Below, piece after piece: positions 24,421 through 52,212 of a stretch of DNA of 64,000 bases. Below the pieces are notes generated by a model that had not been told where the DNA came from, did no database searches, and saw only the letters and a list, made by a program, of their open reading frames with translations. The DNA comes from Psammoneis japonica. Lineage: Eukaryota. The stretch covers positions 99,075 through 163,074 of the forward strand of contig QPGO01000083.1 in assembly GCA_008632985.1 (NCBI GenBank). Reading direction: 5' to 3'. Position 1 is the first letter of the stretch, and each line of letters begins with the position of its first letter. Made by a program: the position numbers and the translations under genes.

Positions 24421-24769
24421 CCTTTGACACAAAACTGTCATGTCCAACGCCATCTGAAACAGCCGCTTTGCCACATTTCAAAACCTTGCCCCCCTCTGGC
24501 ATTGGCCATTTACAAAAATGTCAGAGGGGAATGCATGACTTGTGCCACAGACTGCCATTTCAATCATTCATTGTTCCATCATTTGAAGCTGCCCTTGAAC
24601 CTGCGCAGCCCAAACAGACTGCGAGTGATGTAGTTTAGAGTTGGGGTGTTTCAACCATTCATTGTTCCATTGTTTGAAACAACCCTTGAACCTGCGCAGC
24701 CCAAACAGACTGAGAGCCAAAGGATTGTTGGTAAAAATGGTCTGCAATGCAGAGCTGTTTACAAAAATG

Positions 24770-25980: not shown

Positions 25981-26329
25981 TGTCAAACACACAGTCAGCT
26001 TGATGAAGGGAAAAAACCAATTTCAGTGTTTGTCACAAGACAAATGATGTGTGTTGGATGCAACGTGCCACGTTGTGCAAAATCAGAAAGGAGTCAAGCC
26101 AACAAAATGAATCATCCAATCTCCAGCAGCACAAATCACTGTTTTTTTCCCTTTTAAATGAGTCTCTGGTCTCAGATGTGCATGGCATTGTGCAGGCAAC
26201 AACTGGACACAAATGTGCAATGACCCTTCAAGCAAGACTGCAGTTGGAGTGCAGTGCAATGGATGCATGCATGACACCACATGACGGCAATGTTGGGGAG
26301 GCACAGCAGGTTTCATCTTGCTGTCATCA

Positions 26330-28280
26330 GTGACCTGTTTGCATTGCCAGCCTGATTCCTTGTGGGACTCCTTTGTGCAGCATGAAGGCTTTGCTCAAGG
26401 CTGCCCTCTCAGCCCTGTCTTCACCTGCCTTGTTCTTTCCCATGTGGTTTGTCCCATCAACCAAGAACTCCTTCAACATCTCTCTTCTTGCTCACCTGCC
26501 TCTGTTGGCTCCCAAGCTAATGATGCCCATGCCTTCCTCCCACACTCATCTGTTCCCTGTTTTCTTCAATGCTTTGAAACCCTCAGCACCCCCTGTGGCA
26601 TCAAGCTCAACTGGCGCAAAACTGAGATTCTCATGTCAACCTCTGACATCAGTCCACTCTCTGCTCTTTCTCCCATCGATGCCATCTCCCTTTGCACCAC
26701 CTTTTCTCCTGTCTCTCAACCCCGCCAACAACTCCTCACACAGCCCCAAACTCATCTCTGGCAGCCACTTCCTCAGTCAGCCCCTTGGTTCTCAGGCCTT
26801 TGCCAACTCCTCCCTCACAGCTGCTGCTGCCATCCCGTCCTTCCTTGTCTCCCTGCTCTGCTCTTTTTGCTTTGCTGTTCATGGCATGCAACTCTCATCT
26901 GGTGACTCCCTCCTGCACCATGCTCGAAGAACGAGCACAAACGAAAGTAGAACAAAGTGCGAAAAGTGGAAATTGTGAGATTAAATTTTGCTCTGTGATT
27001 TTTCTCCGAATGAGTTCTCAATGGCCCAAAGCTTCTGTGCTGCTTCTACAGACAAAAGGCCTTTCGGAGAATGCAATCGTGACAACAGATTGTCCGGATA
27101 CGATTGCTGTTGACACGTAAGATGTCAACATCGTCAATCGATCGTATTTGCAAAATTTTTGACTTCCGATCTATCAACTCTGTGTGTGATCGTTCTGACC
27201 TTCGTACGCATCCACGACTGTGGTGCGATTGACACACAAATGACACACCAAAATAGACATGCATGTGACAGTCGCATGCTGCACTCCACCTTTCTTGGAA
27301 TTTTTGCCTTGCACTGTCCTCTTGAAACAATCCCAACTCCCACCTTTGCCTGTGCACCCTCTTTTGCTGTTGCACCTCTGTTCTCACCTCTGACTCTTTG
27401 CCTTCCTCTGACTCTCCTTCCCTTTTTCTCTCCCTGCTGTTGTCAAGTCACTCACACTTCCTGGACTTGCCGGTCAACTCTGTCATGAGCACTGGCAATG
27501 CATTGTCAATGAGGCCATTGCCAATGCTTCCTCAAATGTTCAAATTGCTCTGCCTTCCCTTTTCTCTCTGCTTGCCAGCCTCCCACTTCACTCACTCTCC
27601 TGCTGCTCTGATGCCGTTCAACTGACCTCCCCAATGAACACACTGTTGCCGCCCAATGCAAGCTTCACCTCCCCACACTGCCTCCATCTCTCTCATTGGC
27701 ACTCTCTGCTCCTGCAGCCTTGCTGCTCTTGATGTCTGTGGTGATCATGCCTTCACCTGCACTGGCGATCACAAAAACCTTGGGTCCTCTTGACAAGCCA
27801 TGCAACATGCACCCAAAATGTCATCTTGAGCCTGCAAATCTTCTCCCAACCCCCCCCCTCCTCTGCCCTGCCAATGTTGGCATTGCCATCCCTCCTCCTG
27901 CATCCATTGCTGCCCCTTCCCATCATCACCACACCACTGCAGATGCAGCCATCCCAAAGCCCCCCTCACCCTCCTCCCAGTCTGCCCACTCCTTCTTCTC
28001 CAGTTTCAACTGAGGCACAATGTGCAAGTGTGAGGTCAAAGTTTCTTGGACCCACTTCCTCCTCCTCTGATGGTTCCCTCTCCATCCAATCCCTTGACAA
28101 CAATGGGATCTTCCCTCTTTTTTTTGCTGTTGATCACCTGGGCAATCTCGGCTTCTTCTTTCACCGCTTCCTCTTCAACACTTCCGCTGCTGCTCTCTGC
28201 TCTCAGCCCAAGCCACCCTGGTCTGACTCCACTGCCCTTCAAGGCTCTAACCCATCCTGCGTCCCCTTTTCCCATGCTCT
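26330..28280 (+). pseudogene. Second CRE/Ambal-like non-LTR retrotransposon remnant (RT and C-terminal region), interrupted by the Plavaka element
   Basis: QHEGFAQGCPLSPVF...GIKLNWRKTEIL (RT), then FFAVDHLGNLG..FHRFLF. The frame continues across the insertion as ..VPFSHAL|ASPFVLLSSAD. Confidence 0.7.
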
Positions 28281-29324
28281 CATCAGAGTGCACGATGTCG
28301 CAATGTCTGCACACATGACAAAAATGTGTTGCCACATTGTAAAATCTACTCATCTGCACATGATGGTTTTTGTCATTCAGCCAATTGTTGATCTCCTGCT
28401 GTTCTTCATGTTTGAACACAGATGCTTTTTAATTTTTATGCTCAGCCTTTTTCACAACAACTGATGATCTTTAATGACAAGCCAAACGTTGCAATTGCAT
28501 GCAATGAAATTTTCATCATGTGAAGTGTGCACTGATCATTCAATCAACAACTGTGCTCCAATTGGCCTGTTCGTCCGCATCATCCTCTTCATTCCATGTG
28601 TCTTGTCCGCTCTCTTGCAAGAATTTCAAATGTGTGTGCCGCTGCCACGTTGGATGTTTCCTCGTCACCGTTCCAAAAAAGCCACACTGCATTTCTTGCA
28701 TTTGGGTGAACATCATCGAGAGGAAGAGGTCCCTTGAAACGCAGAATCGCATCACCGCTCCCCTCTTGACGTCGTGTCGTCTGCTTCTTTTTCTCTTTCT
28801 TCATTTTTCCCGTCCTGTTTTTCTCTTCCTTCTTCGTCTTGGCACCGCCTGTTTTCACCGTCTCCGGCGTCTTTCCATCCGAATCCTTCTTTTTCATCGA
28901 TCCTGTCGCCGTTGCCTTCATCGTGTGTCACTTTGTTTTGGATCCATGTTTCTGACTTCTCTCCATGCTGTCCCTGTTTCCGAATGTTTCTTTGTGATTG
29001 TTCGCATGCGTCACTTGAAGGCACCCATGTGTTCTTCACGTGCCTCAACGTGCACACAGAAATCCATGTTGTTTTTCAGCACATGCACCCTTTCTCCTGA
29101 TGCATGTTTTCACAACATTTTCTTCCATCAATTCTACACTCCGCATTGCCCTTTCCCGGTGCAATCTCACGCAGGATTTCTCTGGGAGAAGTCACATGCG
29201 CGTCTGGCAGGTTTTTGTGCACAAAACTCAAATCCCACCAGGCGCGCATGTGACTTCTCCCACGCACCACTCTGGCATGTTTCCACAGAAACCAGAATTT
29301 TGTGACTGACACACAACCAATCTG

Positions 29325-30314
29325 GTGAATGCAATGGCGAACCCACGACCACAACAATCAGAGCATTGGAAGAAAACCATGTCAGATGAACTCCGTCCAT
29401 CCACTGCTGAGGATTTCCATCACCGGATGATGGAGACAGTTGATGGTTTTGTTCACGCTGATGCTGCTTGTTGTTCGGAGGAACAGAGAGCAAAGGATGC
29501 AAAGGCTGCTGTGTCAAGATTGGCAGAAGCAATGGCAGAAGCCCGCAGTGCTTTGTCAAATCAAGCAACAACCACTCGCGAATTTAAGCACATCCATGTG
29601 CAGTTCATTAAGTCATCGATCAAGACACACCATTCAGACAACTACTGCATTGTTGCAGTGGAAAATCACAGCAAAGCAGAAATGAGTTTCCAATGCTTTC
29701 TTCACGGCAACGCATTTGACGCAAAAGAATTGGGGCTCCCAATCTCCATTGCGGGACATCAAAAATCAGAATGCAGGCTAAACATGCTGCACAGCTGTGA
29801 CTCGACGTTGCTTCTGAGAAGCCTCAGGGCAAATTCTGACACAGACGCCAACAGAGCAGCAGAGAGGGAGCAATCTGCGATTGACAGCATTGGCAAATCC
29901 ATCCACCGCCGTGCCGTGCCACTCCTTCGAAGGCGACATCTAACACAGCCGCAGCGCGTCCTGAAGGACACAATCACATTGCTCCACGAGGCCCTCAACA
30001 ATTTGACAAGGAAAGACGTTGCCTTGCAGTGACAGTGGCAAGCTTTGTATGATCTAAGGCCAGGCACAGATCAAATGCGGGGAGGGATGTAGACCGCGAT
30101 CCGGGCTGTGGACGAAGAAGCCATGGCAAGAGAAAGGGTCCTGCAGTTGGCATTGCAAATCGAGGCACAATTGGTGGCTGTCAACCAGCCTGACCACAGC
30201 GCCAACTTTCAGCAGGCGATTGTGGCTGCCAGGGAACATTTCATGGTGCAGGATGACCAAATGGACCGTGCAAGTGGACACTGCATAGAATCCACGAGGA
30301 AGCAATTGCTCTAA
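29325..30314 (+). pseudogene. Accessory ORF A of the Plavaka element, unknown function, two in-frame stops
   Basis: The 235-aa ORF and the in-frame 30108-30314 ORF read as one helical-looking protein interrupted by TGA and TAG. Confidence 0.5.
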
Positions 30315-30339
30315 AAATGCACACACTGTGAGTGAATGA

Positions 30340-33300
30340 CAGATTGACACGCGTGTCCCATTTTAGAAACAAATCTGACCAACACTTCCTTCTGTCCTGT
30401 GTGGCCCAAACAAACAGGGCCTTTTCTTGCGCTTCTGCTGCTCCTGGACATTCTTCATAAACCAAAACATTGTCCCCAATTGCTTTGACAGGGACAACAC
30501 GTAACTCAGGTGAGCACTGAGTCTTCTCAGGCATTGAAAGCCAGTTGTTTTGTTTGTGATCAAGCTGCCAGTGACTGACCAAGTCTGCATGCTGACACCG
30601 TTGCCTCACAGTTCTCTGGTCAGCTTGACAAGCAGTTGGATGGACAACTGCAAAAATCGATCCTGTGTCTTCCTGTTCGAAGAAACACAGCAAACGGGAG
30701 GGAAACTGTTGATCGCCCTTTCGTGTGCCAAAGGTCACATGGGCAAAGTCACACCATGGTCCTTCGCTTTTGCAATCGGGGTGCACACGGTGCGCATCCC
30801 TCCCACTTGCATTGTAAAACTCTGTCTTACAAGTCAGGTGTGCATTTTCACTGTCTTCACCAACACAATCCTCCCACTTTTCCGACATGAAGTTTGGCAA
30901 CACAGGGTGAACTTGGCAACGAGTGTGCTCACTGTTCCACTCAAACGTCACAGCGCCAATCCCTCAGTTGTAGGTGAGAGTGAACGCACTTCCTCCCAGC
31001 ATGTGATTGTCCGTCCTGACTCTTGATGATTCCTTTTTCCCAGTTGGCAAAATCCAACTGTCAGCTGAAATTGCAGCGTTGAGCCTCATTTGGTCCTCCA
31101 CACGCGACACGACCTGCTTCAGAAAACTGTCGAGGTTGCGTTGTTGTGCGGCAGATGACGGCAGCTTGAAAAAGTCTTTCAAGAGACATTCCCCCAAGCC
31201 TGCGTCAAAGTTCATCGCATGTCGGCAATGACAAAGAAACACTGGGAGATGGAGTGTTTCATGAAGCTTTTGAAGCTTCCATCCGCACCCTTCTGTTTGC
31301 GGGACGAATTGCACTGTCCGGTCAATGAGGAGACGGATTTTCTTGTTCATTTTCTGAACAGATGACTGGGAGTTGCGCTTGTGATGGGTGGATCGCCTAG
31401 CCTGTGCCATGCGTGGAAGACAAGAAGGTCCTTGAGCAATTGAATGAATTGCCGGACGCTGCAGTTGAGTCTTTTTCCCTTGCATTTTTTCTTTTTTTGG
31501 TTGTCCTCACCATCCTCAGCCTCACTCTCCTCTTTCTCATCCTCATTTTTGTCCCAGTCACCCTCTTCGGACTCCTCCAACCTTTCATCGTCAGAGTCGT
31601 CCAAGTGCTCACTAGGTTGGCAGCAACTCTCAAAGTTTGCTTTGGGCATCTTGCGATTCTCTGGAACAATGGGTTCGTCTGCGTCCTCGTCAAGGAAGCA
31701 TGACTCACATGCGTTTCGTCCCTTGCTGGTCAACAGGAGAAGGTAGAAAACAAAAGCCATTCCAGCCCAGTGGTGAGAGTTGAGGAAGGCAAGCAACGTT
31801 GCTCCTCCTTTGAAGTTTGTTCGCAAAAAGGATGCTTTGCAAGTTGACCGGTGATTGCTGAAAATCCTTTCCACCATGCTGTCCACCTCACTTGCGACCA
31901 CAGGTGTCATGCTGTCTACAAATGAATTGATTGCCCTTTTCAAGGTGCCATTTTCAAAGAGATGCATCATGTCGCTTGCTGTCACAAGGGCAACGCCGCA
32001 TGGTTGTGTGCCAAAGTCTGCCTCAAAAAGACAGTTGGCAGGCACGTTGTGTTGCTTGAGGCAATGCAAGATGCCCAACCAGTGCTTCCTTTCTTGGTCT
32101 GATCTGTTGTCGTCGTTGGCCTTAGTTTGCACTTGGTGGAGATCCAGTCCTCGGACAAACTCGCATTCAATCCATGGGTCGTCCAGTTTGTTGAAGCCAG
32201 TGAGGCAAAAACGACAGCAATGTTGACGACAGTTGTGACCTCCATGTCGTCCGACGAGACAGTCGCCGCTTTTTGCGTCTCCTATGATGAGAACGATCAG
32301 TGGGATTGCGTGGAGGTGTCGCATCTCATCCCCTCGTCGCACGTGTGTTTTCATGCCTCCTTTTCTCATGACTTCCAAAAGTGGCTCCAAAACAACACGT
32401 GAGCAAGTGTGGCAGTCTCTTGACGAGCGTCCCTTCTCCACCTTGCGATTGTTTGAGAGATTCTTTGCCGCAGATGACGACATCTTTTCCAAATCCGGGA
32501 GATGACCAATTGGTTTCCAGACACTCTTGTCCGACCATTTGTTGAAGGCAACATGCGCAGAGGTCATGATCACTGGCTCTCCGCAATGTGATCCCATCCC
32601 TTGTGTCCTGCCAGTCTTGTCGAGGTAAATGACATTGCACTCGAGAAATTGTTTCTCCAGGTCAGCCATCCATTCTTCGTAACTGCACCTGCACTACTCA
32701 CCCGCCAAAAGGCACTTGTCATCCGGTCCCTTCGCTTTGCACTTCCCAAAAGGATTGTCTGGATCGACCATGTTCTCTCTGCTGCACCACAGGTGAGGAT
32801 CGAGTGAAAACTGTTCCCAAACCTTTGTGAAATCCCATCTTGGCACTGACACTCGTTTTGGCAAACCGGTTTTGAAATTTTTGGTTTCTAGAGTGACAGG
32901 AACAGACTCGCTGGGTGGAAGAGGGAAATGCTTGGTTAAGGTGCGCATCAACTCTTTTCTCCTTGGCAGAACTGTGCCAAGCTTGATGTTGCTGCAGCAA
33001 AGGATTGACCACCGCCAACATCCAAATCGTTCATTGCCAAAAGTTCAACTCCTTGCATGCTGTGGTTTGATGAAATGGAGGACATGTCGTCCATTCCGTG
33101 CGGTGCGTCATCCGGGGAGGGGAACAAGGGGCTGCTGCGTGGATCACTCGTTGAAGATCTTGGGAATCTGCTGTGAGTTGATCGCCTCAGATGGGACTCG
33201 TCATCATCAGAGGACGAAGAGGAAGAACTGCCGCTTTCTTCGGGTGGCCCCTCTGTTGTGGCAGGAATGTCGCTTTGATCTGGGATTGGATCTTGGGTTT

Positions 33301-33450
33301 GCAACTCTTGGGCAACTGAGTGACACGTCTGCGAGCATCTCCAATGGCAGGCTGTTCACAAAAAACTTTGGCCACAACTGGGACAGAGAAGAGGGTTTCC
33401 GTCCATTGTAAATCAGACAATGTTGACAGGGCCTTCATCAAGACTCATGC
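30340..33450 (-). pseudogene. Plavaka-family transposase, frameshifted and hypermutated
   Basis: VIYLDKTG...EPVIMT...WKPIGHLPDL...RDCH..IIGDAKSGD.LVGRHG..CCRFC...DMMHLFENG...KLHETLH...NFDAGLGE.LLK.FFK.P...PWCDFAHV, spread over several ORFs. Ends approximate. Confidence 0.75.
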
Positions 33451-33858
33451 TCGTCATCCTTGTCTTGTGTATGAGAAGGGAAAAAAAGAACAACACGCAA
33501 AAAATGGCGGGAAATTGGCAAACATTACATTGTCTTCCAGATTGGGATGATTCTCACAGGCATGACATGTCTGCATTTTGATTTTTTGTCTGGCATCCAC
33601 AATGAATGTTGCACTTTTTATTTGCTGTCAAAATGCAGGACATTGTCTCCGTTGAAATGCAATGACAGCCACATCAAAAAGTGAGTTGGACTGTTCGTTG
33701 TTACACACAAATGTGTTTTCAAATTTCAATGTTGCTGACAACAATTTGTGCAATGTCACAGAGAAAAATAGAGTGCCTGGCTGTCTCAACACGACCCAAA
33801 CGACGGTTGCACTGTCGAACAGTGCCACTCCTCTCATTGTTGCTGTGAAAAGATCAAG

Positions 33859-35157
33859 ATGTTGTCTCCAGCACAACCGGCAAAAAAGAGAAAGAAAAAT
33901 GAGACCATCAAGCCAATGAGCCCGAGACTTCAGGCAGTGTTGAAGAGAACAGGTGCGCAGGCAGCGCATGGTGCATTGAAATCAGAAGTGGAGAAGGTGG
34001 CCAGAAATGATCTCTTTCCACAGGTGAAGTTTCTCAGTCCATCAGAATTGGCAAGCAATGGGAGCATCTCAATGTTTGTCAAGAAACAGATTGCTGGTGG
34101 CAACACGGACACTTCAAATTGGTCAGGAACTTGGGAGGAATGGGCAAAAAAGGCGGTAAAAAGGCAAATTGACAATCGCAGAAACACGGTGTGTTTGGCT
34201 GTTGGGGCGGAGGCAATGGCCAGCAAGCCAAGTGACCAATGTGTGTGATTGGAGAGTTGCACGCATCTCACAAGAAGATGACAGTGATGCTTTGTCTGTG
34301 TGGGCGTTGTCACTGAGGAAGAGGGAAAGGAAAAAGAAAAGAAACTCAAGGCGGCAGACAGGAGGAAAAAGAGGAAAAAGTCAAGCCGTGACAAGAATGA
34401 AGAGAATGACATCCCGTTTGTGCCGACATGGGATCCGTTTGGCCTGGACACTGTCACCAGCGGTAAACGAAGGAACAAGCAGGCATGCAAGTGGTTCTGT
34501 GATCACATCCTGCCTCAAACCAAGCAAAAGCAGGCGTGGAGCAGCACCATCAAAACTGGGAACACACAGGTCTCACAGTTGTTTACGGTCGGTGACGAAG
34601 CTTTGGCGCTGTCAGCCATGGAGAATTGTTGGCAGGTGTGGGCATGCAGGAACAAGGAGGAGGTGGTGGAAGAATTGGGTGAGGAAATGGAGCCTGAAGA
34701 AACAAGGCCTGCCCCTCAGCACATGAAGCCAAAGAAACAACGAGTGTCTTGGGGAGATGACGGAATCAATCGGTTCAACGATTCATGCAAAGAGGTGACG
34801 AAAGACAGAGACTCCAAGGAGGGCAAGGAGTTTGAAAAGTGGCATGTGGAGATCAAGAAAAGTGAGCACGAGAAGTCCGGAGAAGCAAAAAAGAAGAAAA
34901 AGAAAGCACCGACCGGTGATGCGGATGAGGTGAAGGCAATGAACAGCCCAATGGTGGAGAGCAACAGGGACGACAACAGCAACGACAATGAGCAGGAGGA
35001 AGGCGCAAAAGGCAAAACGGATGATGGAGGAGACGAGTCCGATGGAGACGAGTCCGATGATGATCACTGGCTTAGTTTAAGAGAGTTGCAGCAAGAAAAT
35101 GTGTGCACAGTTAACACAGCACTCGGTCATTGCACTGCAGACATGACAAGGGATTGA
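33859..35157 (+). pseudogene. Accessory ORF B of the Plavaka element, two exons with inferred intron 34223-34303
   Basis: VARNDLFPQVKFL...IDNRRN, then WFCDHILP...FTVGDEALAL..MENCW...WGDDGINRFN. The exons join in phase 1 if GCAAG and TGG are mutated GTAAG and TAG. True start may be further upstream. Confidence 0.6.
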
Positions 35158-35454
35158 CTCAACCGATGAAATGCTTTTCTCGTTTAAAACAATGTTTGCG
35201 AAAATTGACAAACCAAAGATTGTGTGGAAATGCAATCACGCATTGGCATGTGGCAACAAGGTGGAGGCAGATGTGGTGATGTGGGTGCAGTGAAAAACAG
35301 CATGCACAATTCTCAACAAGTTGTTGCAACATTGGTGTGGCAAACTTGCAACCAGAGGTTGGCCTTTCATCATGTGACAACAATGTTTTGCAACATTTTG
35401 GCAAATTGTCATCATGCAAATCTGCACATTTTCAACATTTCGTGCACTCTGATG

Positions 35455-35750
35455 CTCGCCTCACCTTTTGTGCTCTTGTCCTCCGCTGATTTCAGTTGGC
35501 ACCAACTCACAACTGATCACTTTGGCTTCTCTTGCCACTCCTCCACTCCTTCTCAATGAGCCGCTCAAACTCTTGGCTGCAACATTGTCCATCACTCATC
35601 CGCCCACGCTCTCCACTTCCTTTCCAACCTTTGCACTGATGCATCTCCCATCCCTTCTTCGAAATGCCCTTTGCACTGTCTCACGTGCCCCTTCTTTGCA
35701 CCCGCCCCTGAGGCTCTGCAGCTCTCCACCGTGCCCACTCCCGGCTTGGG
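35455..35750 (+). pseudogene. 3' remainder of the non-LTR element split by the Plavaka insertion
   Basis: ASPFVLLSSADFSWHQLTTDHFGFSCHSSTPSQ* continues the 28280 frame once the CT duplication is removed. Confidence 0.6.
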
Positions 35751-35914
35751 AGGTCTGCAAAATTGGTGCGGGAAGAAGAGGAAGAGAAAGAGCTCCGTGC
35801 CGGCCCATCCTCTTGCTGCTTTCCATTCCTTTTGCTGATTTTGCTCTTTGACTTTCTACTTAAAATAAAAAGCCGCCGCGCCGGCCGGCCACACTGTAAA
35901 AAAAAGCACGGCGC

Positions 35915-36096
35915 TCACTGGCCTCGTGGAGACCGACAAGGGGAGATGACCTCATTGCCCGTTGATGACGCACTGGGAAATCACCCCCCGCATCTGCCAC
36001 ATTGAACGCATTCAAGTTGGCGTTTGGAAGCGAGCTGCTGTTGCTCATTCTTCTGAAGAGCTTTAGCAGCAAGCCGAACAGACAGTCTAAAAGCGC
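35915..36096 (+). repeat. Split direct repeat A1 (182 bp; partner A2 at 41921-42102)
   Basis: tcactggcctcg...gacagtctaaaagcgc is present at both positions with the same length. Confidence 0.95.
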
Positions 36097-36162
36097 CATT
36101 GTGTTCGGCGGAGGATGCCATCCGCCGCTGCACCCACGAGGCTCGCAGGATAGTCACACATT

Positions 36163-38420
36163 GTGAACCAAGACGGAAATGTCGGAAATGATCCACTGCC
36201 GGATGCCGCTGAGGTGGCACAACAACCCCAACAACCGATTCCGGCGGCCAACAACGCCCAGAATGTGCCACCAGCACCGGTGCATCCCGTGGTGCCGGCA
36301 GCACCAGGAGCAGCGGCACAACCTGCCACAGCGCAGGGAGGACAAGCCCCGGGAGGGGCTCCCCAACAGCCGGCACCTCAAGTGCCACCCGTCCCGCCAG
36401 CAGGTCCCGTGGGGCAGGGAGTTCCAGCGCCACCAGCAGTGATCCGGGCCTGTTGGGATTGCTGCTCACACGCCACAAAGGATCCGTGCGCCAGCAACCA
36501 TGCGGAAATCATGCAGGACTTCATGGTCCCACCACAAGGGCAATCCCGCTGTAATCCCAACGTGTTGAGGACACGTGTTGGAGCAGCCTCTTCACACGAT
36601 TTGCCTGTGGCACTGATGCAGCACTGCCGGGTGCAAGGAGGCAACGACATGGGAGTCACGCAGGTGTTTCATCGCGCAACCCAGCACCCGATCATGGTGG
36701 CAGGACCAGCACAACCGTGGGACGGACAATTTTTTGCGCTCGCAGGCGACCTGACGATGGGACAATGCCAACTTGCACCCATCGCCAACGATGCCTTTCA
36801 GCTGGCCCAACACGGCACATGGGTGCCGACCGACGCAGCGCTGCAAGCTCACATTGTCACGACCCTGGAAGGATTGCACCCACAAGTTCAGCCGAATGAC
36901 CAGACGCGGTTGAGGTCAGGACGCGGAACACCATGATGGTGCCATTCGCGCATGTTAATCTCTTGCTTTCAATGCCGTTGACGCCAAAGCAGGCATTTAC
37001 CCGGGTGCTGGGGGCTGTCACGGTTGCCAATGCGGTCAACGAATGCAGGCCACTTCTGGACTTTTTAAAAGTGGCGTGTTGCGCGACAGCATGGGACCAA
37101 CACACATCCGAAGCAGTGCAAGCATGGCCAACGATGGTGCAGCCACCCAACGAAGCACTCATTCGTTTCTTTGATGTGATGGTGCAGCGTGACCTTCCGC
37201 ACCGCGTGGGCCAACCACCGCAACCGCGCCAGTTCGAACCAGTGGTCACGGCCATTGAGAGCTTAACAGCAGAACAGCGCCAACAATGTTTAGACGTGGA
37301 AGCGCGCCAACAGGCGGCATCGCGCGGCAAGACACAAACGGAGTTCTGCGGAGAGTTTGGCATCGCCAAACTCATGCGTTTGTGCCAGGTGCATCACGAA
37401 GCTAACCCACCACCACTCTGGGCGCAACTGGCGGCCTCTCCCAAGACCGGCCGCATTGCTGCCATCCAAAATGCAATCGATGAGCAACGGCAAGCACACC
37501 ACGTGTACTTCAGCATGCCAGTGACCGTGAACCTGGTCACAAAACTCACCCAAGTCGACTTTGCTGGGCACAACAAGGACGAGTTAACTCAAGGAATCAC
37601 CCCCTTCTTGTTCGGCATTGCTGCACCGGAGCACGCCGAGCAGACCGCCTGTCGCAGCTCCATGCACCAACAGATTCATGGAGGCAATGGCACACCGCCC
37701 TTGGTGGATGCGCGTGTGTTGGAGGCCCCGGACGACGCTGTGGTGGCCACTGCGATCCAGGCAGTTCAGCAGTCTTTCAACGGTTTGCGCATGGTCCTCT
37801 CAGCAGCCTTTGGCGTGGCACATCCACTGGCACAGTGGTTGACTCACATGCACCAGTCAATGGATGTCTGCGCGAACGATTTGGCGGTGCAAGTGGTGTC
37901 GCACCCGACGTCACCAGCGGACCTGCAACGTTGCACGCAGGCAAAGATGTGCCATTGGTTCCAGGCGCAGATGCACTCACAAAACCCTGTCCCATTTCAA
38001 CTGCTCCCAGTGGTGGCTGAGGCCGCACAAGGCACCTGCTGTTGGCGTCTCAACCTGCCGACGTCTGTCCTTCAACCACCCACGACACCGCGGTCGCAGA
38101 CCTCTGGGCAGCCACAGCCAGGACAAAACCGCGTAAATGCGTCTGGCGACAATTCCATCGTCCGCAACAAACAGTGCGACGAACGTTTCACGGTCTTGCG
38201 GGAGCGCCCCAATGTCCGTTCGCACACCGTCAAGCAGCGCTGCGCCTGTGACAATGTCGCCTTGCCCACGGATTCCCAAGGGGTGCCACGTTGTCTCCCA
38301 TGCCATTTCATTGGACAGTGCAACAACAACTGCGGATCACGCGCCAATCATCATCATAACCACATGGAGCAGGAGCAGGTCGACCTTCTCACGTGGGGTG
38401 CGCAACATTGGAAGACCGAA
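36163..38420 (+). pseudogene. gag-like ORF1 with C-terminal CCCH-type zinc finger; frameshift near 36930
   Basis: Pro/Ala/Gln-rich N-terminus and C-terminal CLPCHFIGQCNNNCGSRANH, in the first-ORF position of the element. Confidence 0.65.
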
Positions 38421-38559
38421 CAGGTCATCGGCAATGGTTCCTGCTTGGGGACATGGAACCAAGAGCCACTTCCCGCACGGGCACACAAGCCCATGCATCC
38501 ACAACCCCCGCAAGTGGAGTCTAGAAAACGGCCCTTCCACCCCACAACACGTGGACAGG

Positions 38560-40620
38560 ATGTGGCTGCATCAGTGCTGACTGACAAATTAGGCAAGCAA
38601 ATTGCACGCGATGCAAAATTATTGCGCCTTAGAGGCCTCAGTTGCTTGTTGCGTCTGCACAGTGGCAGAGGTGACTGGGGACCATTGGTGACAACGCGAC
38701 AGCATGCAGCACACCGAGTGCTCACCGGTTGCAAATTTCGAGGGGTGCCGGTCACTGTTGCAGACAAGCCATGGTCCAACGCTGAGCTCCAAGGCAGCAT
38801 CGCTCGAGGACCACACAAGTCCGCCTACGAATGCATTGAGTTTTTGTGCGAAGACATGTCTGACTGTGTCAACAAGGGTTTCTGGGTGGTTGTTCCATAC
38901 AACGACGTCCAAAATGAGCCCAATCTGCGGCTGAGTCCCATTGGCGTTGTCCCACAACATGCACGTAGACCACGACTGATTGTGGATTACACGTTCTATG
39001 GTGTTGATCCCTCTGCTCAGCCCAACGTGCCAATGGAGTCCATGTAGTTCGGGCACACGCTGGACCGCATCCTGCGGTGCGTTCTCCTTGCCAATCCCAA
39101 CAAGGGCCGTGTCCATCCAATGAAGATTGACCCAGCTGACGGTTTCTGCCGCATGCAGCTGGCGCCCGAGCAAGCACCCACACTGGGTGTGGTTTTTCCC
39201 CAACTTCCCGGGGAACCTCCCCTGGTGGCCATGCCAACTCGGTTGCCCATGGGATGGTCCAACTCGCCTCCGGCATTGATTGCCAGCCAGTGCGCAACCA
39301 TCTGGCACCGGAACACCCACTCGAACCTTGCCTTGACAGCCGCCCACCAAAGCACCATGCTGTCACTGCTGACGTGAATCCGTCCATCGCTGTCCCAGTG
39401 CCAGACACGCCAGATCCACACCTCGTGCACCGCCGCCGGCGGCACCTCCAACATGTCGACATCTACGTTGATGACTTCATTGGCGCCGCCCAAGGCTCCA
39501 AACAATCGCTGCGCAACGTGCATCGCACGATCATGCACGCCATTGACGATGCATTTCGTCCACTCGACAACCGAGACCACGCGAGTCGCAAGGAGCCAAT
39601 CTCAGTCAAAAAGCTCCGCAAAGGCGACGCCACTTGGTCAACGCAGAAGGAGGTCCCAGGGTGGATCATTGACACTTTGTCCATGACCATCCGCCTTGCG
39701 CCGCGACGCCGCGAGCGCCTCCGCACCATGCTGTACGAAGAGTTTCCCCACCATCGCAAGCGGGCAGTGCTCACCGACCTGCACAAGCTTCTTGGCGAAC
39801 TGCGATCCCTCACGCCCGGCATTCCCGGGTCTCGCAATCTGTTCTCCGAACTCCAGGAAGCCTTGCTCCACACCAAACCCGACGGGCGAGTTTGTCTTGC
39901 CCGCAATTTTCATGACACATTGGACGATTTTCGGTTGTCATGCCGCGGGCTTGATCTCCACCCCACCTGTGTCCAAGAACTTGCTCCCCTGTCGCCCACT
40001 GTCACGGGCTGCCATGATGCAGCCGGTCATGGTGCAGGTGGCATTCTTCTCCCTGCGCCATCAGCGGTCGCATGCAGCACCACGCTGCGTTGCTCCACTG
40101 CTTGCCGTCGGAGACCACAACACAATGCCGGACCCATCGTCTGGCGCATGCATTTCCCTCAAGCAGTCACCGACCACCTGTCCACCTTTAAGAATCCCCG
40201 CGGCCCTGTTGCCAACACCGAATTGGAGTTGGTCGGCAGCATTGTGCAATCCTGTGCCGCGGCGGACTGTTTCGACGTTCGAGAGCGCACAGTGCTTGAC
40301 CGCACGGACAACACCGGCACTCTCTTTCGTCAACGCAAGGGCTCCACCATGACTGCGAAGGTTGCAACACCCCTCCTTCGATGCCAAGGTCACCACCAAC
40401 GTTTCCACTGCCACCTGTCTCTCCACGACTGCTTGCCGGGACCGTTAAACACCGCTGCAGACGACGCCTCTCGCTTGCAACATTTGTCCAACCGTGCCTT
40501 CTTGCAACATTTTAACACTCACCACCCACAGACTCCCTCTTGGCGCCTTTGGACCCTGCCACCCGAGCTGCGTTCCTGTGTGATCTCGGCGCTGTGCAAC
40601 ACGCCATTGCCCACGGCATT
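38560..40620 (+). pseudogene. Reverse transcriptase / RNase H (pol), with stop and frameshift
   Basis: LRLSPIGVVPQ..RRPRLIVDY, KIDPADGFCR, LPMGWSNSPP, IYVDDFIG, HDAAGHGAGG, ELELVG, TDN, PGPLNTAADDASR. Confidence 0.9.
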
Positions 40621-41694
40621 GCCGCTTCTTCCGCCAGCTCCAGCAACACCCACTGGGACCTCTGGCAAAGTTTCTGTGACGACTTGGCCCTCGACCCTCT
40701 CTCACAAGACGTCAGCGACCCAGTCATCTTTTTCCAAGTTTTCATGCACCGATTCTGTACAGGCGCCATCGCCCCACGTGGCAATCCCGTCCGCGCACGC
40801 ACCGCTGAGGGTGCCTTACGGTCGATTGGCCAAACGTTCGCTGCAATGGGGTCCCCGGACCCGCGGCACACACTCCAAGGCAACATGGATTTCTGCATTA
40901 GCCGCCAAATCCGTTTCTACAAGAAAGAGGATCCTCCACCAGACCGGGTCAAACCGGTCCCCGTCGCTGTCCTCTTGTGGATTGCCCACGCCGCTTCCCC
41001 AACCAACCATCCGGGCACCCAAACCATCGCAGACATGACTGCTTTGGCCTTTTTCTTCCTCCTGCGGCCAGGCGAATGCACCGCCACCCCTTCCGACACC
41101 ACTCCATTTCGGTTGGGCGACGTTCGCCTCTCTGCTGGAGGTGCTTGCCTCGATTTGTTCACCTGCACTGATGAACACCTCGACACCGCCACCTTTGGCA
41201 TGCTCACTTTTGCCACACAGAAGAACAGCGTGCGTGGCGAAGTGACAGGCCTTGGCCTGTCCAGACACCCTGACCTCTGTCTGACACGTGCCCTCATCCG
41301 TCGTGTGAAACATCTCCGCGCCTTTGGTGCCACACCAGACACGCCCCTGGGTGTGTGCTTGCACAACAACACCTGGTGCCGTGTCTCTCCCGCCGACATC
41401 ACCAGCATCCTGCGCACCGCAATTCTGGCAATCAGCCCCGCTGCGCTGGGTTTCACACCCGCCAATGTCTCCACTCGCTGTTTGCGCGTGGCTGGTGCCA
41501 TGGCCCTCCCATGTGCCCATGTTGACGCCAACGTGATCCGCCTCTCAGGCCGATGGCGCTCCGACGAGATGCTCCGTCACCTCCACTTACAAGCAGAACC
41601 CGTCATGCGCAATTTCGCAACCCGCATGTTGGCGGGCGGCCAATTTGTCCTGCACCCCAATGCCGACGTGCCCCTTGCTGCCGCCGACCCGTGA
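40540..41694 (+). pseudogene. Tyrosine recombinase of the retroelement; catalytic Tyr position reads His
   Basis: AFFFLLRPGECT ... QKN ... STRCLRVAGAMAL ... IRLSGRWRSDEMLRHLH. The family pattern is LRPGEY and GRWxSxxMLRYLH. Confidence 0.85.
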
Positions 41695-41792
41695 TTCCAT
41701 CACAGGCCACGCCTCAGCCTTCCAGCCGGGCCCACCCACCCACCCAATTGCACCGCCACTGCCTGCACCAGTGCACGTGGGTGGTGCCGGAA

Positions 41793-42185
41793 TGGCCACA
41801 CTGTTCCAGCTTGGGAATGGAAAGGGACCAACTGCGCTGGCAAAGTCCTCCCATCCATGCCAATTGCCTTTCCCTAGAATCAGATCACCGCAAGAAGTCG
41901 TGCGAGCAAAGCAACGCCAGTCACTGGCCTCGCAAAGACCGACAAGGGGAGATGACCTCATTGCCCGTTGATGACGCACCGGGAAATCACCCCCCGCATC
42001 TGCCACATTGAACGCGTTCAAGTTGGCATTTGGAAGCAAGCTGCTGTTGCTCATTCTTCCAAAGAGCTTTGGCAGCAAGCCGAACAGACAGTCTAAAAGC
42101 GCTCCCACCTCTCCCTCCCTCTGGCCACACCGTTCCAGCTTGGGAATGGAAAGGGACCAACTGCGCTGGTGAAGTCCTCCCATCC
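41793..42185 (+). repeat. 3' split repeats B1-A2-B2
   Basis: The 64-bp B unit tggccacac.gttccagcttgggaatggaaagggaccaactgcgctgg..aagtcctcccatcc flanks A2 on both sides. Confidence 0.9.
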
Positions 42186-42337
42186 CTGCTGGTTGCCTGA
42201 AAATCACTCGCCACCATGACGAGTGCCGCCGACGCGCCGTCGTGCAGCTCTGCGGCCGTTTCGCATTTTCCAATGCGGTGCCACCAACGCACTGTGTGAC
42301 TCTTTTATCTAAAATCACTGGCTTCAATGTTGTCACA

Positions 42338-43397
42338 GGGACACACGGCATTTTGTCGCATTTGGTGACATTTTCTTAAATGAATTGATGATTTGTCGCG
42401 AAAAGACGCAAATTGCGACAAAATGTCCGGGTTGGCGATAAACGGGACAGAAACATTGTTTGGCCAAGTCATGAAATGATCAATGTCATTGTTTGCAACC
42501 AACCTGAACTTTGGCGATGTCGTTTCAATGAGTGGGGCAATTAACAGAATTTGGCGATCGATGTCATCAACGAAAATTCATCCGACAAAATTTGTCGCAT
42601 CCGACAAATTTTGTCGGACAAATTTTGTTGGCATGTGACAAGACACGACACGACAAGACACGACAAGACACGACAAGACACGACAAGACACGACAAGACA
42701 CGACACAACAAGACACGACACAACAAGACACGACATGACACGACACGTCACGACACGACGACTCACGAACGAAACACCCACGCCCCCCGCACACGCTGGC
42801 CGCTAACATCTCCGTTGACACTGCCGGCATGTCTCTTTTGCACGATGATGCAAAGCGACGATCATGCCGCTCTCGGCGGTCTCCATGCTCTCGTCAATGC
42901 CGGGACAACATCGTGCGCTTCTACACAGTGCAACGGAATGCACCGGCATGTGTTGCTGCACTGTGCCTTTTGTCAGTGCGACTGGGCACTTCTGAATGTT
43001 GGGGAGCGTTGCGCCATCGGCATGTCGCAATGCGTTTGTCGGCTCTTGTCGGCGTTTGTCGTACGTTGTCAGGGTTTGTCGGGGCTTGTCGGGGTTTGTC
43101 GGGGTTTGTCGGGGCTTGTCGGGGTTTGTCGGATACGACAAAATTTGTCGCACGTACGACAAAATTGCCAAAACATCAATTAACAAGTGCAGTCTTCACC
43201 GAAAGTTAAATTCATCACACCACAGCACTTTGGTTGATTTAACGTTTGTGTTTGGGACACGCCATTGCCAATTAAATGATGATTTTGTCTTGTTTATCGC
43301 CAACGGTTGAAATTTGTCTCAAAGGGCGTTTTTCACGACAAATCGTCCAATTCATTTATGGGAATGTCGCAATTGGCAACAAAATGCCGTGTGTCCC
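42338..43397. mobile_element. Non-autonomous TIR element (1.06 kb) with ~130-bp imperfect TIRs and internal CGACAA/TTGTCG arrays
   Basis: GGGACACACGGCATTTTG ... CAAAATGCCGTGTGTCCC ends. (cacgacaaga)n at about 42637-42760 and (gtcggggttt/gtcggggctt)n at about 43067-43132. TSD not clear. Confidence 0.8.
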
Positions 43398-44269
43398 AGA
43401 ATGCCACAACCATTTAAAGCAAGGCTTCGAAAACGAATGGCAAATCTTCTGGGGTCAAACACAGTCACACTCAATTGTGACCTCGAAACCCTTTGTTCGA
43501 CCATTGAGCCATGCACAGCTTGCAAGAATGAGATCCATGCATGATGTGTGGAAAGTTTTTGTTGAGCTGGGTTTTGCACCGGAAAATGTGCATTGTGTGT
43601 CTCTTGCTGCACCCGGTCCGTCGCGTTGAGAGGTTGTGACGCGATGTTGCACTGCGCGGCATGCAACACCGAAACGAATGAATTTGCGACGCACTCCGTC
43701 CATTTTGAGCAGCGTTGCCATGGTGTTGGAGCAGTTCAAGACTCTGTCACTCATGCAATCACTCCTCCGAACCCCAAGATTGATCCAGTGTGTCATCCCA
43801 TGCGAAACAAGGAGAGCCCGGATCAACTCTTTTGAGTCAAATTAAATGACATCTCAGTTCATCAAAAGGTTCAAGATTCCGCATCCTGACCTTTGATGGA
43901 CATGAAGAGGATGACAAAGTTGCTCTAGTTTCAACTGTTCGGCCTGCTTGCTCACAGGAAGAATGGACTGACGAAATGAAAGAAGCGCTCAAGAAACTCT
44001 TCAAGCGCAAATTAAGTCCGACTCCAATTTCAAGTTACAGCAAAGCTTCGTGGGGTCTTTCTGTCCAGGTGCAGGTGGTCCGCATCTTCACAGACAAGCC
44101 CATTTCGCCGAGCCCCTCTCCGAAACAGCATCCAAGTCATTGCGCCTTTCATGCGGGTCAGAAGTCACCCGACAAGGAATTTCACTGCCCATCCTTGTGG
44201 CCAACTCGACATTGTTCCAATGCATTCAATTGCTGTTCATCTACACTGTTTGTGTCACAACCCAAAACT

Positions 44270-44765
44270 GAGCATTGTGGAATGTGCGCAACACTTGATT
44301 TGAATGTCGGAACAATTGGTGCAAGCTCTGGGTCTCGCACTGGGATTGGACGCTGACGCACTTGACTGTTTGTTTCAGAAGGATCCATTCCGCCTGCTCA
44401 AACTCACATCCAGCAGATCCACACAACCACATGATCCAGAACAAGACACCAGTGGTGTCGATGCTCGCACGGATGCAGGACTCTGCACTTTGCTTCTTCA
44501 AGATCAAGTGGGAGGCTTGCAAGTCAATCCACTTCTAAATGGAAACGACTGGATCAGTGTTCCACCCACTGGACCCGACATGGTGGTTTGCAACCTGGGC
44601 GAAGTTGCCGAGCTTGTGAGTGGCCGGCATCTCTTGGCCACACCACTCTGTGTTGTGATGTCGCCCTGTGACAAGGCACGCATGTCCATTTCCCGTTTTT
44701 TTTTTACAATCCGACAAACGCTTTCAGTTTTTCGAAATCGGGCAAGTGGGGGACTGCGGCACTGA
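44270..44765 (+). pseudogene. Fragment of an IPNS/DIOX-like 2OG-Fe(II) oxygenase
   Basis: ALGLALGL...GVDARTDAGLCTLLLQDQVGGLQV...WISVPP...VCNLGE...SGRHLLATP..V...RMSI. HxD motif lost; TA depleted. Confidence 0.75.
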
Positions 44766-44791
44766 AACAGCGTAGAATTCTACGTATCGTA

Positions 44792-45208
44792 CTTCGCCGT
44801 GTTGTAAATCGAAATCACGTGGTGAAAGCACGGTGAAACTGACAAGTGGCGGAGAACGTCCAAATGCTAATTGGAAGGAAAGTAACGTTATCGAGCTTGT
44901 CCTAGACACATGTTATCCAATGTAAATAGAAACTTTCGTTGAGAAACTTGTTAAAACAAATGTTTTGGACAATTCCCAAGTTCACCACGGTGAAGCACGG
45001 GAAATCACTCGCCAAATTGCCGCGCAAATCGCTGGCAATTATCTAGCGATACTTTATAGAGCTATAATCAACGAATAGCTTCCATTCCGACATCGAACTA
45101 GCACAACTTATTGTAAGATATGTCACAGCACAACTGTCATTTAGTCAGAAGCAGTTGTGGCTTTCCACCGTGCTTTCGTCGTGCCATCAATTTTATAACA
45201 CGGTGAAG
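44792..45208. mobile_element. 417-bp MITE, Tc1/mariner-like (TA target site)
   Basis: TA|CTTCGCCGTGTTGTAAA...GAAAGCACGGTG at the left and CACCGTGCTTTC...TTTATAACACGGTGAAG|TA at the right. Confidence 0.7.
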
Positions 45209-45534
45209 TATGTACGTAAATTCATACCAGGTTCTACTGCAGTCCCCCATTTGATCGACTGAAAGCGTTTATTCTATCGGCCGTTGTGATAAAACAACTC
45301 CGTGTCCATGATGACTTGTGGGAATGCTCCAGAGACAAACGTTGGAATCATCAAGCTGGAAACGTGATGCATTCTCATTATGGAAAGAACGCATTCAAGA
45401 GCCCTGCACGATCTCATCCACGAGTGTTTTCGGAGCATCACGCAGACTTGGAAGTGTTGGAGAATGGCAGTGTTGTGAAACGAGAAGATGCAACATGAAA
45501 CACACAAGACAAGCAAGTAGCCGCTACTCTTCCC

Positions 45535-46584
45535 TTACGCTCTTTCTAGATTCGTAACTTTGGATCCCCGACCATCGGCTTGAGCTTTGGCTTGCCGCGA
45601 CATTTGCGCGTTTAACCTGCCTCTCGATCCTACGTGTGCTGCCCCGGAGGAAGATCCGCTACCATGCCTCACCGTTACCGAGTGCGTGCTCTTGCCAGGA
45701 ATTGGAACAAGCTTAAACTTGTAAACTTTTGGTCCGTCGACACTTGGCTCATACGTGTAACCGGTGCATCGGTACAAGCCTTCATAATAGTATTCAGGCT
45801 TTCCATCTTCACCTGTGGATCGTCTCAATAAGCGGATCGGATCTCGAGTCGACACAGATGAAATGAGTGACGAATTGGCTACATTCTCCTCTTGATCTGT
45901 CACATGATGCTTGCCTTTTTTACCTCCCGATCCAGTGTAAATGACCGATCCGTCGGCTTGACGATCATTGTCGTCCACATATCCGCCAGACAAGCAAACC
46001 GCATAGCACGCCTCGTCCTTGACCGAGTCAATCCCAGAAGGAATCTGGGTGTGAATCCCCAGAATCGCGGCTTCACCGCGACCTTTCAACTTGATGCCGA
46101 TTGGGACTCCCTCTATTTCCCCATGGCGACGACGAGGTGTCCATGTGTTTCGCAACTCCTTAAAGGCAACCATATCGGGTTTCTTCTGCTCAGCCTTCTC
46201 CAGTTGATTTAGTCTCTGGCGGAACTTTTGTAGTGCTTCGGCCGCACGACCCGTGCATTCAAGTGTACCGTCCTGCTGCTGTTGCTGCTGCTCCTCCAAA
46301 CGCTCTTGTTCTTCTCGGTATTTGTTAAACACTTGTTTCCACTTTTTGTACAAGGCCTTGGCTTTGGACCCAACAGTTGCGTGCGACTTTAACTTTCTAA
46401 TCACAAAAACCACCTCGCTGTCCCTCAGCCATGGATACTCCACGTCAAGCTCGTCAAGCCTCTGCAGACAGTCTTTAACAGATTCGACCACCGTCTCGTC
46501 GTTGATGGTATCTTGATTCTCAATTGCTTTTTCAAGACGTTCCTTTAGAATCTTGATGGTGGATTCTGTATTTGGTGATGACAT
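45535..46584 (-). CDS. Protein with an N-terminal TFIIS-N/Med26-like helical bundle and a C-terminal SRA/YDG domain
   Basis: HGEIEGVPIG...GIH..IPSGID...AVCLSGGYVDDND...YTGSGG...DQ...N.SL...PIRLLR...YYYEGLY...KFKL is an SRA domain. LQRLDELDV..LRDSEV..VIRKLKSH..V..KAKALYKKWK is TFIIS-N-like. Likely ATG at 46584. Confidence 0.88.
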   Translation of the reverse strand: MSSPNTESTIKILKERLEKAIENQDTINDETVVESVKDCLQRLDELDVEYPWLRDSEVVFVIRKLKSHATVGSKAKALYKKWKQVFNKYREEQERLEEQQQQQQDGTLECTGRAAEALQKFRQRLNQLEKAEQKKPDMVAFKELRNTWTPRRRHGEIEGVPIGIKLKGRGEAAILGIHTQIPSGIDSVKDEACYAVCLSGGYVDDNDRQADGSVIYTGSGGKKGKHHVTDQEENVANSSLISSVSTRDPIRLLRRSTGEDGKPEYYYEGLYRCTGYTYEPSVDGPKVYKFKLVPIPGKSTHSVTVRHGSGSSSGAAHVGSRGRLNAQMSRQAKAQADGRGSKVTNLERA

Positions 46585-47243
46585 GTTCTGTTGAAATATA
46601 TCGTATGGCAACAAAAGGACAGAACGCAGAACGCAGACCAAATAATAGAGGACGGCTCACTTTTGGCTGCTAAAGGATAATCGAATCCAAAATAAGATAG
46701 ATGGATCTACGACAGAGATGGCGTTTTACAACTCTGACAACAACACACTCTTGGCAGCAACAACAACTTGAGGCTCGAGGTGACGTGAAGAAGCAATGTT
46801 GGAGATCGTGGATCGTGGCAGATCATGGCAGATGCGAGAGAGGCAGGTCGCGCGACACCGGTTAACAGGAACAACCACCGCTGATTGGGGGGCGCGCTTC
46901 CCCCTGACGTCACGGGTTAACCGCGCTAACCGGGGGGAGTCCTCAGTGGTTCCTGCCCGTAGGAGGCCGGCGCCGGAACCACCCCCGGAACCGGTTCCCG
47001 GACCCCGGATAGGCCTGTGGTTAGTGAAGATAAGAACCTTCAGAACAGGACAAGACGTAAAATCCACTTATCGAAATGTTCTTTCTTCCCACTCGAATGT
47101 CAACATGATTCGAAACGACTCCACTTATCGAACGCCATAAGTGAGCGTTTGATTTCAAAAACCTCTTTTCTTTTGATAGTAAGGTGGGTGCACCCCAAAA
47201 GATTATCCCTCGAGGCTATCATAATGAGCAGAACAGACCCAAG

Positions 47244-51934: not shown

Positions 51935-52069
51935 GGTGAAGCGTATCTTCGGATTTTCGCAATCGCTGCTGTTATCGCTGTCCCACAAGATTGCCCATGT
52001 TTTTACTGCGCGTTCAGCGTGAAGCGCGCGCCAAAAAAGCTGTGACAGACGTCAATCTGGAAATCGGAT

Positions 52070-52206
52070 GATGATGTCAAGAAGTAGCAACAGCACGACC
52101 AAAACATCAAACATGGCTTCGGTTCCTATTTCTTTCGCGCAGATGATGTCAAGAAGTAACAACAGCACGACCACAAAAGCCATAAGTTTCGGTCCCTATT
52201 TCTTTC
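52070..52206 (+). repeat. ~70-bp tandem duplication in the divergent intergenic region
   Basis: gatgatgtcaagaagta.caacagcacgacca...ttcggt.cctatttcttt occurs twice. Confidence 0.8.
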
Positions 52207-52212
52207 TCTTAT

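Follow-up and report, generated by a model that had tools for sequence, protein, structure and literature searches.

Whether the dinucleotides TA (TpA) and CG (CpG) disappear from transposable elements (TEs) through one mutational process or through two is the question raised by a stretch of 64,000 nucleotides from Psammoneis japonica (assembly GCA_008632985.1, contig QPGO01000083.1, positions 99,075 to 163,074 of the forward strand; hereafter the window). Gene blocks alternate here with repeat blocks that are nearly free of TA and carry an excess of TG and CA, and most named homologs of one of the genes (50240-52051) belong to diatoms, with pennate species as the best matches among them, so that a basidiomycete origin, which the Plavaka label of one element might suggest, is rejected. 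An initial annotation of positions 28281 to 44740 had read the pattern as two mutational clocks, with TA lost faster than, and by a mechanism separate from, the deamination of 5-methylcytosine (5mC) at CG. From the window and from related copies found by searching the genome (91 Mb in 597 contigs), we consider it probable that two separable processes mutate the same TE-rich domains: a fast and patchy loss of TA, likely the work of an adenine deaminase, and a slow and steady loss of CG, likely by 5mC deamination.

For each segment we counted observed/expected (o/e) ratios of TA and CG with Poisson intervals. The gene blocks have a TA o/e of 0.41-0.57 and a CG o/e of 0.90-0.94. A Plavaka-like DNA transposon with terminal inverted repeats (TIRs) at 28281-35454 has a TA o/e of 0.10 (interval 0.07-0.13) and a CG o/e of 0.60 (0.53-0.68), and a Ngaro-type retrotransposon at 35900-42200 has 0.14 and 0.82; the corresponding values are 0.20 and 1.35 for a miniature inverted-repeat TE (MITE1) at 42338-43400 and 0.09 and 0.69 for the flank at 43401-44713. 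In the old blocks both ratios are low, with 0.04 and 0.22 at 5.7-15.9 kb, 0.08 and 0.14 at 20.0-25.9 kb, 0.06 and 0.10 at 53.2-57.2 kb, and 0.03/0.13 and 0.02/0.14 in the parts of a retrotransposon remnant of the type without long terminal repeats (non-LTR). The CG intervals of young and old segments are disjoint save for the short non-LTR tail at 35455-35870 (CG o/e 0.51, 0.27-0.88) and an intermediate element at 57.3-59.3 kb (0.40). The contrast drawn in the initial annotation, between younger TIR and Ngaro-type elements that are TA-poor and CG-rich and older blocks low in both, is upheld (0.10-0.14/0.60-0.82 versus 0.02-0.08/0.10-0.22), but these elements keep their CG only relative to the old blocks, 28% (TIR) and 25% (Ngaro-type) of the ancestral CG being already lost, and their description as structurally complete is true of the ends but not of the interior, where open reading frames (ORFs) are broken and the window TIR copy is short of ~220 bp found in other copies. 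Three of the 29 non-LTR relatives examined (L113, L115 and L117) align up to 28276-28280 and resume at 35455; since they are continuous across the insertion point, the nesting of the TIR element inside the non-LTR remnant is real. This nesting, which had been taken to order the elements by age, dates only the non-LTR remnant, and the ages of the Ngaro-type element, the Mutator-like element (MULE) and the 5-16 and 53-60 kb blocks were taken from transversions instead.

The direction of change can be read from the TIR family, from which two rows were dropped (L046, 97.5% identical to L045, and L049, rearranged). In an alignment of 20 copies, TG and CA both occur at 605 sites; 98 of these also show TA only, 309 also CG only, 3 both, and 195 neither. 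Since the ancestral dinucleotide follows from the presence of two one-step products, TA and CG each decay to TG/CA. Conserved tyrosine columns of the element read cysteine in some copies and histidine in others, which argues that the sites of the last class are mostly former TA. The outcome at a site in one copy does not depend on that in another (concordance 0.52-0.72), so the changes postdate insertion, and the CG products comprise 1103 TG and 1070 CA. Over 19 copies, retention, which is the share of inferred ancestral sites kept, is 0.12 for TA and 0.70 for CG. Losses of TA reach 100 in single copies of the Crypton-like element described below, as against 0-2 gains per copy. In the tyrosine recombinase (YR) ORF of the Ngaro-type element (40516-41694), three of the four traceable conserved tyrosine columns read cysteine, cysteine and histidine, and no such change is seen in 112 of 120 homologs. 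One of these 120 homologs from other sources, P0123, has cysteine or histidine at four of five conserved tyrosine columns, a hint that the same process may act in another organism.

The order of the two losses is seen within single families. As a time-zero reference we used the Crypton-like element at 46846-49677 (plus strand; TA o/e 0.66, CG 0.94), for which 11 of 30 matches were fetched, with identities to the window copy from 100% to 84%. Taking the window copy as the ancestor, seven young copies have lost 306/726 TA and 12/1075 CG (three CG columns common to young copies by descent are omitted), with transversions at 11/18161; the ratio of the TA to the CG loss rate is ~50-fold in these copies and 40-fold in erased patches, and one copy (L290) has lost 44/48 TA and 0/81 CG. 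In four older copies, with transversions of 1.0-2.7%, the losses amount to 90-97% of TA and to 27, 35, 60 and 76% of CG. Among 25 copies of the family of a solo LTR (26914-27287), TA retention ranges from 0.93 to 0.10 and CG retention is 0.90-1.00 in 23, with some copies keeping 10-28% of TA and 100% of CG; CG retention tracks transversions (rho = -0.76), which TA retention does not (0.01). In nine elements of the window, the greater the transversion distance, the lower the CG retention (rho = -0.82, P = 0.007). The series from intact to doubly depleted copies is complete within single families, which excludes base composition as the cause and establishes that TA is lost first and CG later, bearing out, at ~50-fold within one family, the proposal that TA loss is the faster. 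Across copies, the two losses scale together in five families examined (rho 0.56-0.85: young non-LTR 0.69, MITE1 0.85, the 57-59 kb element 0.56, the 15.2 kb element 0.57, Crypton-like 0.78) but not in the LTR (0.08), Ngaro-type (0.02; L053, an allele, was dropped) and TIR (0.31-0.43) families; in the retention values gathered over many families, several rows with a single relative are duplicates from overlapping loci. Such scaling had been offered as a refutation of separate processes, but this was mis-set, as two time-dependent processes would correlate anyway.

The loss of TA is a different matter from a clock. Of the ten full LTR elements compared (L272, which is not one element, was dropped), six are mosaics in which erased kilobase patches adjoin others left untouched (adjacency z 5-8), with TA losses of 541/713 in the erased and 46/580 in the intact patches. 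In L260, which has matching target site duplications (TSDs), one LTR keeps 10 TA and the other 30, and in a 99% identical Crypton-like copy six consecutive TA are changed within 157 bp while nothing else is changed there. The loss saturates near 90% and prefers TAY (Y, pyrimidine; R, purine); no clustering of retained TA is found in the saturated TIR family. Being patchy, haplotype-specific and saturating, TA loss behaves as a local switch, and of the two clocks proposed only the CG clock is left. The TA loss of a copy correlates with the TA state of its flank at rho = 0.75 for LTRs, a value in which the body of the element itself counts as one of the flanks, and at 0.18 for MITE1; these values do not establish that the loss simply spreads from old neighbours.

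The two haplotypes provide a further comparison, as contigs C454 and C421 represent the other haplotype for 33803-64000. Within the flank at 43400-44714, 30 of 37 visible TA-type sites differ between haplotypes as against 9 of 58 CG sites (P = 3e-10), most TA having gone since the haplotypes diverged while the bulk of CG was retained. TA losses fall mainly on one haplotype in each interval (20:0 at 41846-44765, 4:17 at 33803-41846), whereas CG losses are divided almost equally (9:8 and 75:76 in the same intervals). CG loss per lineage since the split is 0.20 for the TIR element, 0.17 for the Ngaro-type element and 0.17 for 53-60 kb (P = 0.80), with 0.009 in genes, and this equal rate in three elements indicates a clock. 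Over a longer time the CG loss of the flank is not small, since 9-11 of 22 CG are also gone from its pseudogene piece relative to a paralog on C33. The erased domain ends sharply at ~44760, and the multi-copy repeat beyond (MITE2) keeps 34/36 TA and all 34 CG on both haplotypes. In three gene segments, 14 of 296 TA differ between haplotypes versus three other transitions in 8574 bases. These low-level TA-linked haplotype differences were observed in 49689-53000 and 60300-64000, and are one-sided at 7:1 in 49.7-53 kb. Each haplotype has lost more TA in the part where it carries additional insertions, MITE1 on the window haplotype and extra inserts on the other one. Around an insert at 41842 on the latter, however, TA loss is not raised, and a link between new insertions and the asymmetry is suggestive only.

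Counted per strand, the A>G changes of the fast process amount to 104/340 at TAT, 104/375 at TAC, 34/209 at TAA and 19/204 at TAG, with 0/426 at AAA and 10/255 at AAT, and in four erased young Crypton-like copies TA sites were hit in 278/781 cases versus 31/3907 for other A contexts. Among the TA surviving in old blocks, 46/74 are YTAR, compared with 70/507 in genes. For the chemistry we would give adenine deamination about an even chance, regard thymine oxidation as unlikely, and rate an error-prone polymerase, and equally a route linked to N6-methyladenine (6mA) or some other, as somewhat less likely again. The preference for a 5' T and a 3' pyrimidine resembles that of TadA, for which the literature search found no supporting paper; ORFs for TadA-like and other zinc deaminases are present in the genome and prove nothing alone. 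One ORF (L173:313-1785, on C79) was observed to join a zinc-deaminase domain to a DIOX_N/2OG-Fe(II) oxygenase. The slow process hits CG ~45-fold more than other C>T sites (0.177 versus 0.0039 per base), with no CHG excess (CHG 0.0033, CHH 0.0041), and it likely proceeds through 5mC deamination. TEs of diatoms are CG-methylated, dependent on DNMT5 in Phaeodactylum, according to the accessible text of PMC9998398. The genome has 29 matches to the C5-methyltransferase family PF00145, several in intact ORFs. Seven methyltransferase sequences (L184, L185, L186, L190 and L196 on C301 and C297, L193 and L197 on C28) lie in TA-erased DNA (o/e 0.01-0.11), and these are perhaps borne by transposons or viruses.

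The sequence of events could then be as follows. A new insertion or its flank would first be packaged into a silent, probably CG-methylated domain, within which an A>G activity would act repeatedly, kilobase by kilobase. Its action at TA on either strand would yield TG or CA, turn tyrosine codons into cysteine or histidine codons, and abolish coding capacity at a transversion distance below 0.2%, after which CG decay would run as a clock over the range of 1-5% transversions.

How far the two losses are truly separate depends on the level considered. The chemistry is distinct (3 mixed sites in 605) and so is the dose: A>G at AAY/GAY varies over an 8-fold range among TIR copies of the same age and rises with TA loss (rho = 0.80, P = 3e-5) but not with CG loss (rho = 0.14), the range of which is under 2-fold. 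Within the TIR family, local TA and CG residuals are uncorrelated (rho = 0.04) and the strands are uncoupled. The mechanistic separation originally proposed does not extend to targeting, and several observations count against the two-process reading or limit it. CG loss is 14/428 (3.3%) in TA-erased patches versus 2/367 (0.5%) in intact ones (P = 0.009), and in several families the copies that have lost more TA have also lost more CG; a single multi-activity machine could conceivably carry out both. The common domains and the cross-copy correlation make one upstream trigger likely, and the copies are most simply read as showing a single upstream state, probably that of silenced chromatin, from which two chemistries follow downstream. 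TA changes are only slightly coordinated along a strand (52.5% versus 50.1%, z = 2.9, in the TIR family; z ~2 in LTR patches), less than expected from a deaminase working processively on single strands, and this suggests that the DNA was hit repeatedly and not in a single processive pass. A gene of the TadA type would be present anyway, for tRNA editing. Spontaneous 5mC decay in vertebrates is roughly 10-fold, so the larger excess of CG loss here may itself be enzyme-assisted, and no SNF2-fused (DNMT5) form was seen at the two PF00145 loci checked. The family copies are those ranked best by the genome search and are a non-random sample, transversion distance to the family majority includes subfamily structure and overstates age, and the 195 sites without TA or CG were counted as former TA by inference.

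Four other accounts of the data were weighed. That the fast process is T>C, arising from thymine oxidized to 5-hydroxymethyluracil (5hmU) or 5-formyluracil (5fU) by a dioxygenase of the TET/JBP type at RTA and mispairing with G, with CG decay unchanged, is unlikely but has points in its favour: seen from the T, the motif is R-T-A, with weaker hits at RTT and RTC, and in a dinoflagellate 5hmU has a preference for the T of TA and TC and is located, like 5mC, on repeats, as far as the accessible text of PMC11572971 goes. Against it, the genome has no match to PF12851 (Tet_JBP) at E<=0.1, although a divergent enzyme or an assembly gap could hide one, and a strong mutagenicity of 5hmU is not established in the literature consulted. 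A single chain, in which the T:G mismatch of deaminated 5mC is repaired over long patches by a Pol eta-like polymerase that restores most CG and writes A>G at TA, would explain why both losses occupy the same domains, the slight strand coordination and the local clusters. Pol eta favours the WA motif (W, A or T), with a 2-3-fold preference of TA over AA; AAT is the best target outside TA (10/255), in agreement with this motif, but TA is hit ~34-fold more than AA (278/781 versus 14/1335), far beyond that preference. This chain is also improbable in that transversions are not raised, TA loss in the Crypton-like family is about the same near to and far from a CG (0.66-0.77), the amount of A>G change shows no correlation with that of CG loss, and the two share no common strand.

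If both losses were instead constant-rate clocks, the mosaics would have to reflect exchange between old and young copies, by gene conversion or template switching, which we regard as quite improbable. Intact patches are indeed also poorer in CG losses, the mosaic L259 is without a matching TSD, and two copy pairs agree at 23/25 sites in their best window. The outcomes in erased patches are nevertheless copy-specific (concordance 0.55-0.74), L260 combines matching TSDs with LTRs of unequal TA content, the 157-bp cluster carries 0/7 of the other differences of its best-matching donor, the boundary at ~44760 lies in low-copy DNA, and the patch types do not differ significantly in transversions (1/5231 versus 12/13357, P = 0.13). 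Conversion does not fit L260 and the 157-bp cluster, but may account for some other patches. That the contrast is produced by family base composition, or by long-read base-calling errors at modified bases, is hardly credible. The Ngaro-type family is GC-rich (59%) and started with more CG (~1.03 o/e versus 0.83 in the TIR family), inflating its apparent CG richness, but the series inside single families stands against composition. Logan contigs of a public run, which may be the same sample as the assembly, carry both alleles at about half depth (0 and 10-18 differences, depth 29-41), which argues against base-calling error.

The elements on which the two-process reading is based are arranged as follows. 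The TIR element (28281-35454, minus strand; TA retention 0.13, CG 0.72) has 14-bp TIRs (CATCAGAGTGCACG) and a 2-bp CT duplication, and a TIR with a 2-bp TSD is likewise found in most full-length copies. Its ORF at 31347-32693 matches PF18759 below the cut-off (E = 0.003, 17.2 bits versus 26.3), which its sole longer homolog (P0121, 29% identity) passes with 30 bits; the Plavaka label rests partly on TIRs and a short TSD, which are traits of such transposons. The non-LTR remnant (25950-28280, plus strand; TA retention 0.02, CG 0.18) matches RVT_1 at E = 0.003 and hosts both the TIR element and the solo LTR (26914-27287; TA retention 0.29, CG 0.90); its 3' remainder (35455-35870, plus strand) is contiguous with it in the relatives. 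The family of the solo LTR (L259-L277) is a 4.7-kb LTR element with 4-bp target duplications, and since its least mutated copy is without long ORFs it appears as a young non-autonomous family. The Ngaro-type element (35908-42198, plus strand; TA retention 0.14 and CG 0.75 among nine copies) has split direct repeats (35908-36096/41914-42102 and 41793-41869/42122-42198), a reverse transcriptase (RT) motif YVDDF, and the YR ORF, whose motif RPGE..R..GRW..Y is conserved over 120 homologs. None of its ORFs has a Pfam match, so the name rests on structure (A1..B1 A2 B2 split repeats with RT and tyrosine recombinase, as in Ngaro elements).

MITE1 (42338-43400), a non-autonomous TIR element with a 3-bp TSD, is present on the window haplotype only (TA retention 0.28, CG 0.84). 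The low-copy flank (43401-44713) consists of a 2OG-Fe(II) oxygenase pseudogene piece and a 23S rRNA-derived piece at 44005-44183, recognized by blastn to E. coli 23S; Rfam gave no match at 43.3-44.8 kb. Against a matching high-depth 23S record, likely organellar, 11 of the 13 listed differences of this piece are A:T>G:C, and all five non-TA ones are in NAY. MITE2 (44714-45272; best copies 92%) served as a control. Just beyond the erased domain, an intact ORF at 45535-46656 combines SAD/SRA and TFIIS-bundle domains and is a possible methyl-DNA reader. The Crypton-like element has an intact 716-aa NDC10_II ORF, is very young and haplotype-specific with copies at 99-100%, and is probably still active or just inserted. 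Among the old blocks, 5700-15900 has dated pieces with CG retention of 0.07 and 0.25 at a transversion distance of 0.036-0.040, and the MULE remnant with its neighbours (20000-25900, minus strand) has 6.3% transversions to the nearest relative found. The block at 53200-60100 includes the intermediate-age element at 57260-59280 (TA retention 0.15, CG 0.51); for its part at 53.2-57.2 kb only its own allele matched among 40 scored candidates, leaving it undated.

The separation of fast A>G from slow CG change makes it testable whether methylation is a guide or a bystander. TE ages derived from LTR or consensus divergence are badly inflated in such genomes; copies can instead be dated by CG retention and transversions, with A>G at AAY/GAY as a gauge of exposure past the saturation of TA. 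The leakage into low-copy flanks and, at a low level, into gene regions may shape allele diversity in diatoms.

The closest known case is in the rhizarian Bigelowiella natans, for which a preprint (bioRxiv 10.64898/2026.01.13.699255), as far as its accessible text goes, describes TpA hypermutation of integrated DNA from NCLDVs (nucleocytoplasmic large DNA viruses) as well as from virophages, measured de novo, with an ADAT-type deaminase proposed but untested and TE-related domains enriched among TpA-poor coding sequences. As there, the change is almost only TpA to TpG/CpA, is regional, and includes single-copy DNA; 278/781 TA against 31/3907 other A were hit here, and the low-copy flank at 43.4-44.76 kb is erased. 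The activity in B. natans is uneven between lineages, being on in some only, which the patches and the haplotype asymmetry seen here would fit. Its targets are viral and the preprint extends the range to TEs by inference, whereas the DNA hit here belongs to TEs, to a pseudogene and to a fragment derived from rRNA. Its rate is ~1000-fold per generation, and ours is relative only (42% of TA versus 0.06% transversions in young copies). The diatom case is drawn from copies and haplotypes, and has ~90% saturation, the TAY preference and kilobase patches. The fast process matches the hypermutation of B. natans, which would extend it to the TEs of a stramenopile, with TAY >> TAR >> AAT as a fingerprint. 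A second, slower CpG process is present here; the accessible text of the preprint is without CpG decay or flanking context, and its supplements may hold either. Our literature search, which covered few subscription papers, found no report of TpA loss in diatom TEs and only this preprint, and what is new in the copies compared here is the kinetic separation of TpA loss from CpG decay. The slower process resembles the 5mC decay of methylated TEs in turning CG into TG/CA on both strands, in being TE-confined and clock-like, and in lacking a CHG excess, and differs from the known decay in its ~45-fold excess over other C>T.

Repeat-induced point mutation (RIP) of ascomycetes changes CpA to TpA with C>T polarity, is triggered by duplication, and is premeiotic and RID-dependent. 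The outcome here is RIP-like in that dense, dinucleotide-specific transitions kill TE copies and leak into flanks, but TpA is removed, GC is raised and there is little strand coordination. Nor does duplication act as the trigger: MITE2, at 92%, keeps 34/36 TA, patches occur within a single copy, and the low-copy flank is erased, although very young copies may be unhit as yet. Tentatively, the patterns in these copies suggest that diatoms might carry a chromatin-guided DNA adenine-editing defence shared with Rhizaria, switched on in cis near insertions, spreading in kilobase patches and disabling a transposon well ahead of CpG decay; this would amount to a RIP of reverse polarity that reads chromatin rather than homology, and to a natural A>G editor of the double-strand genome.

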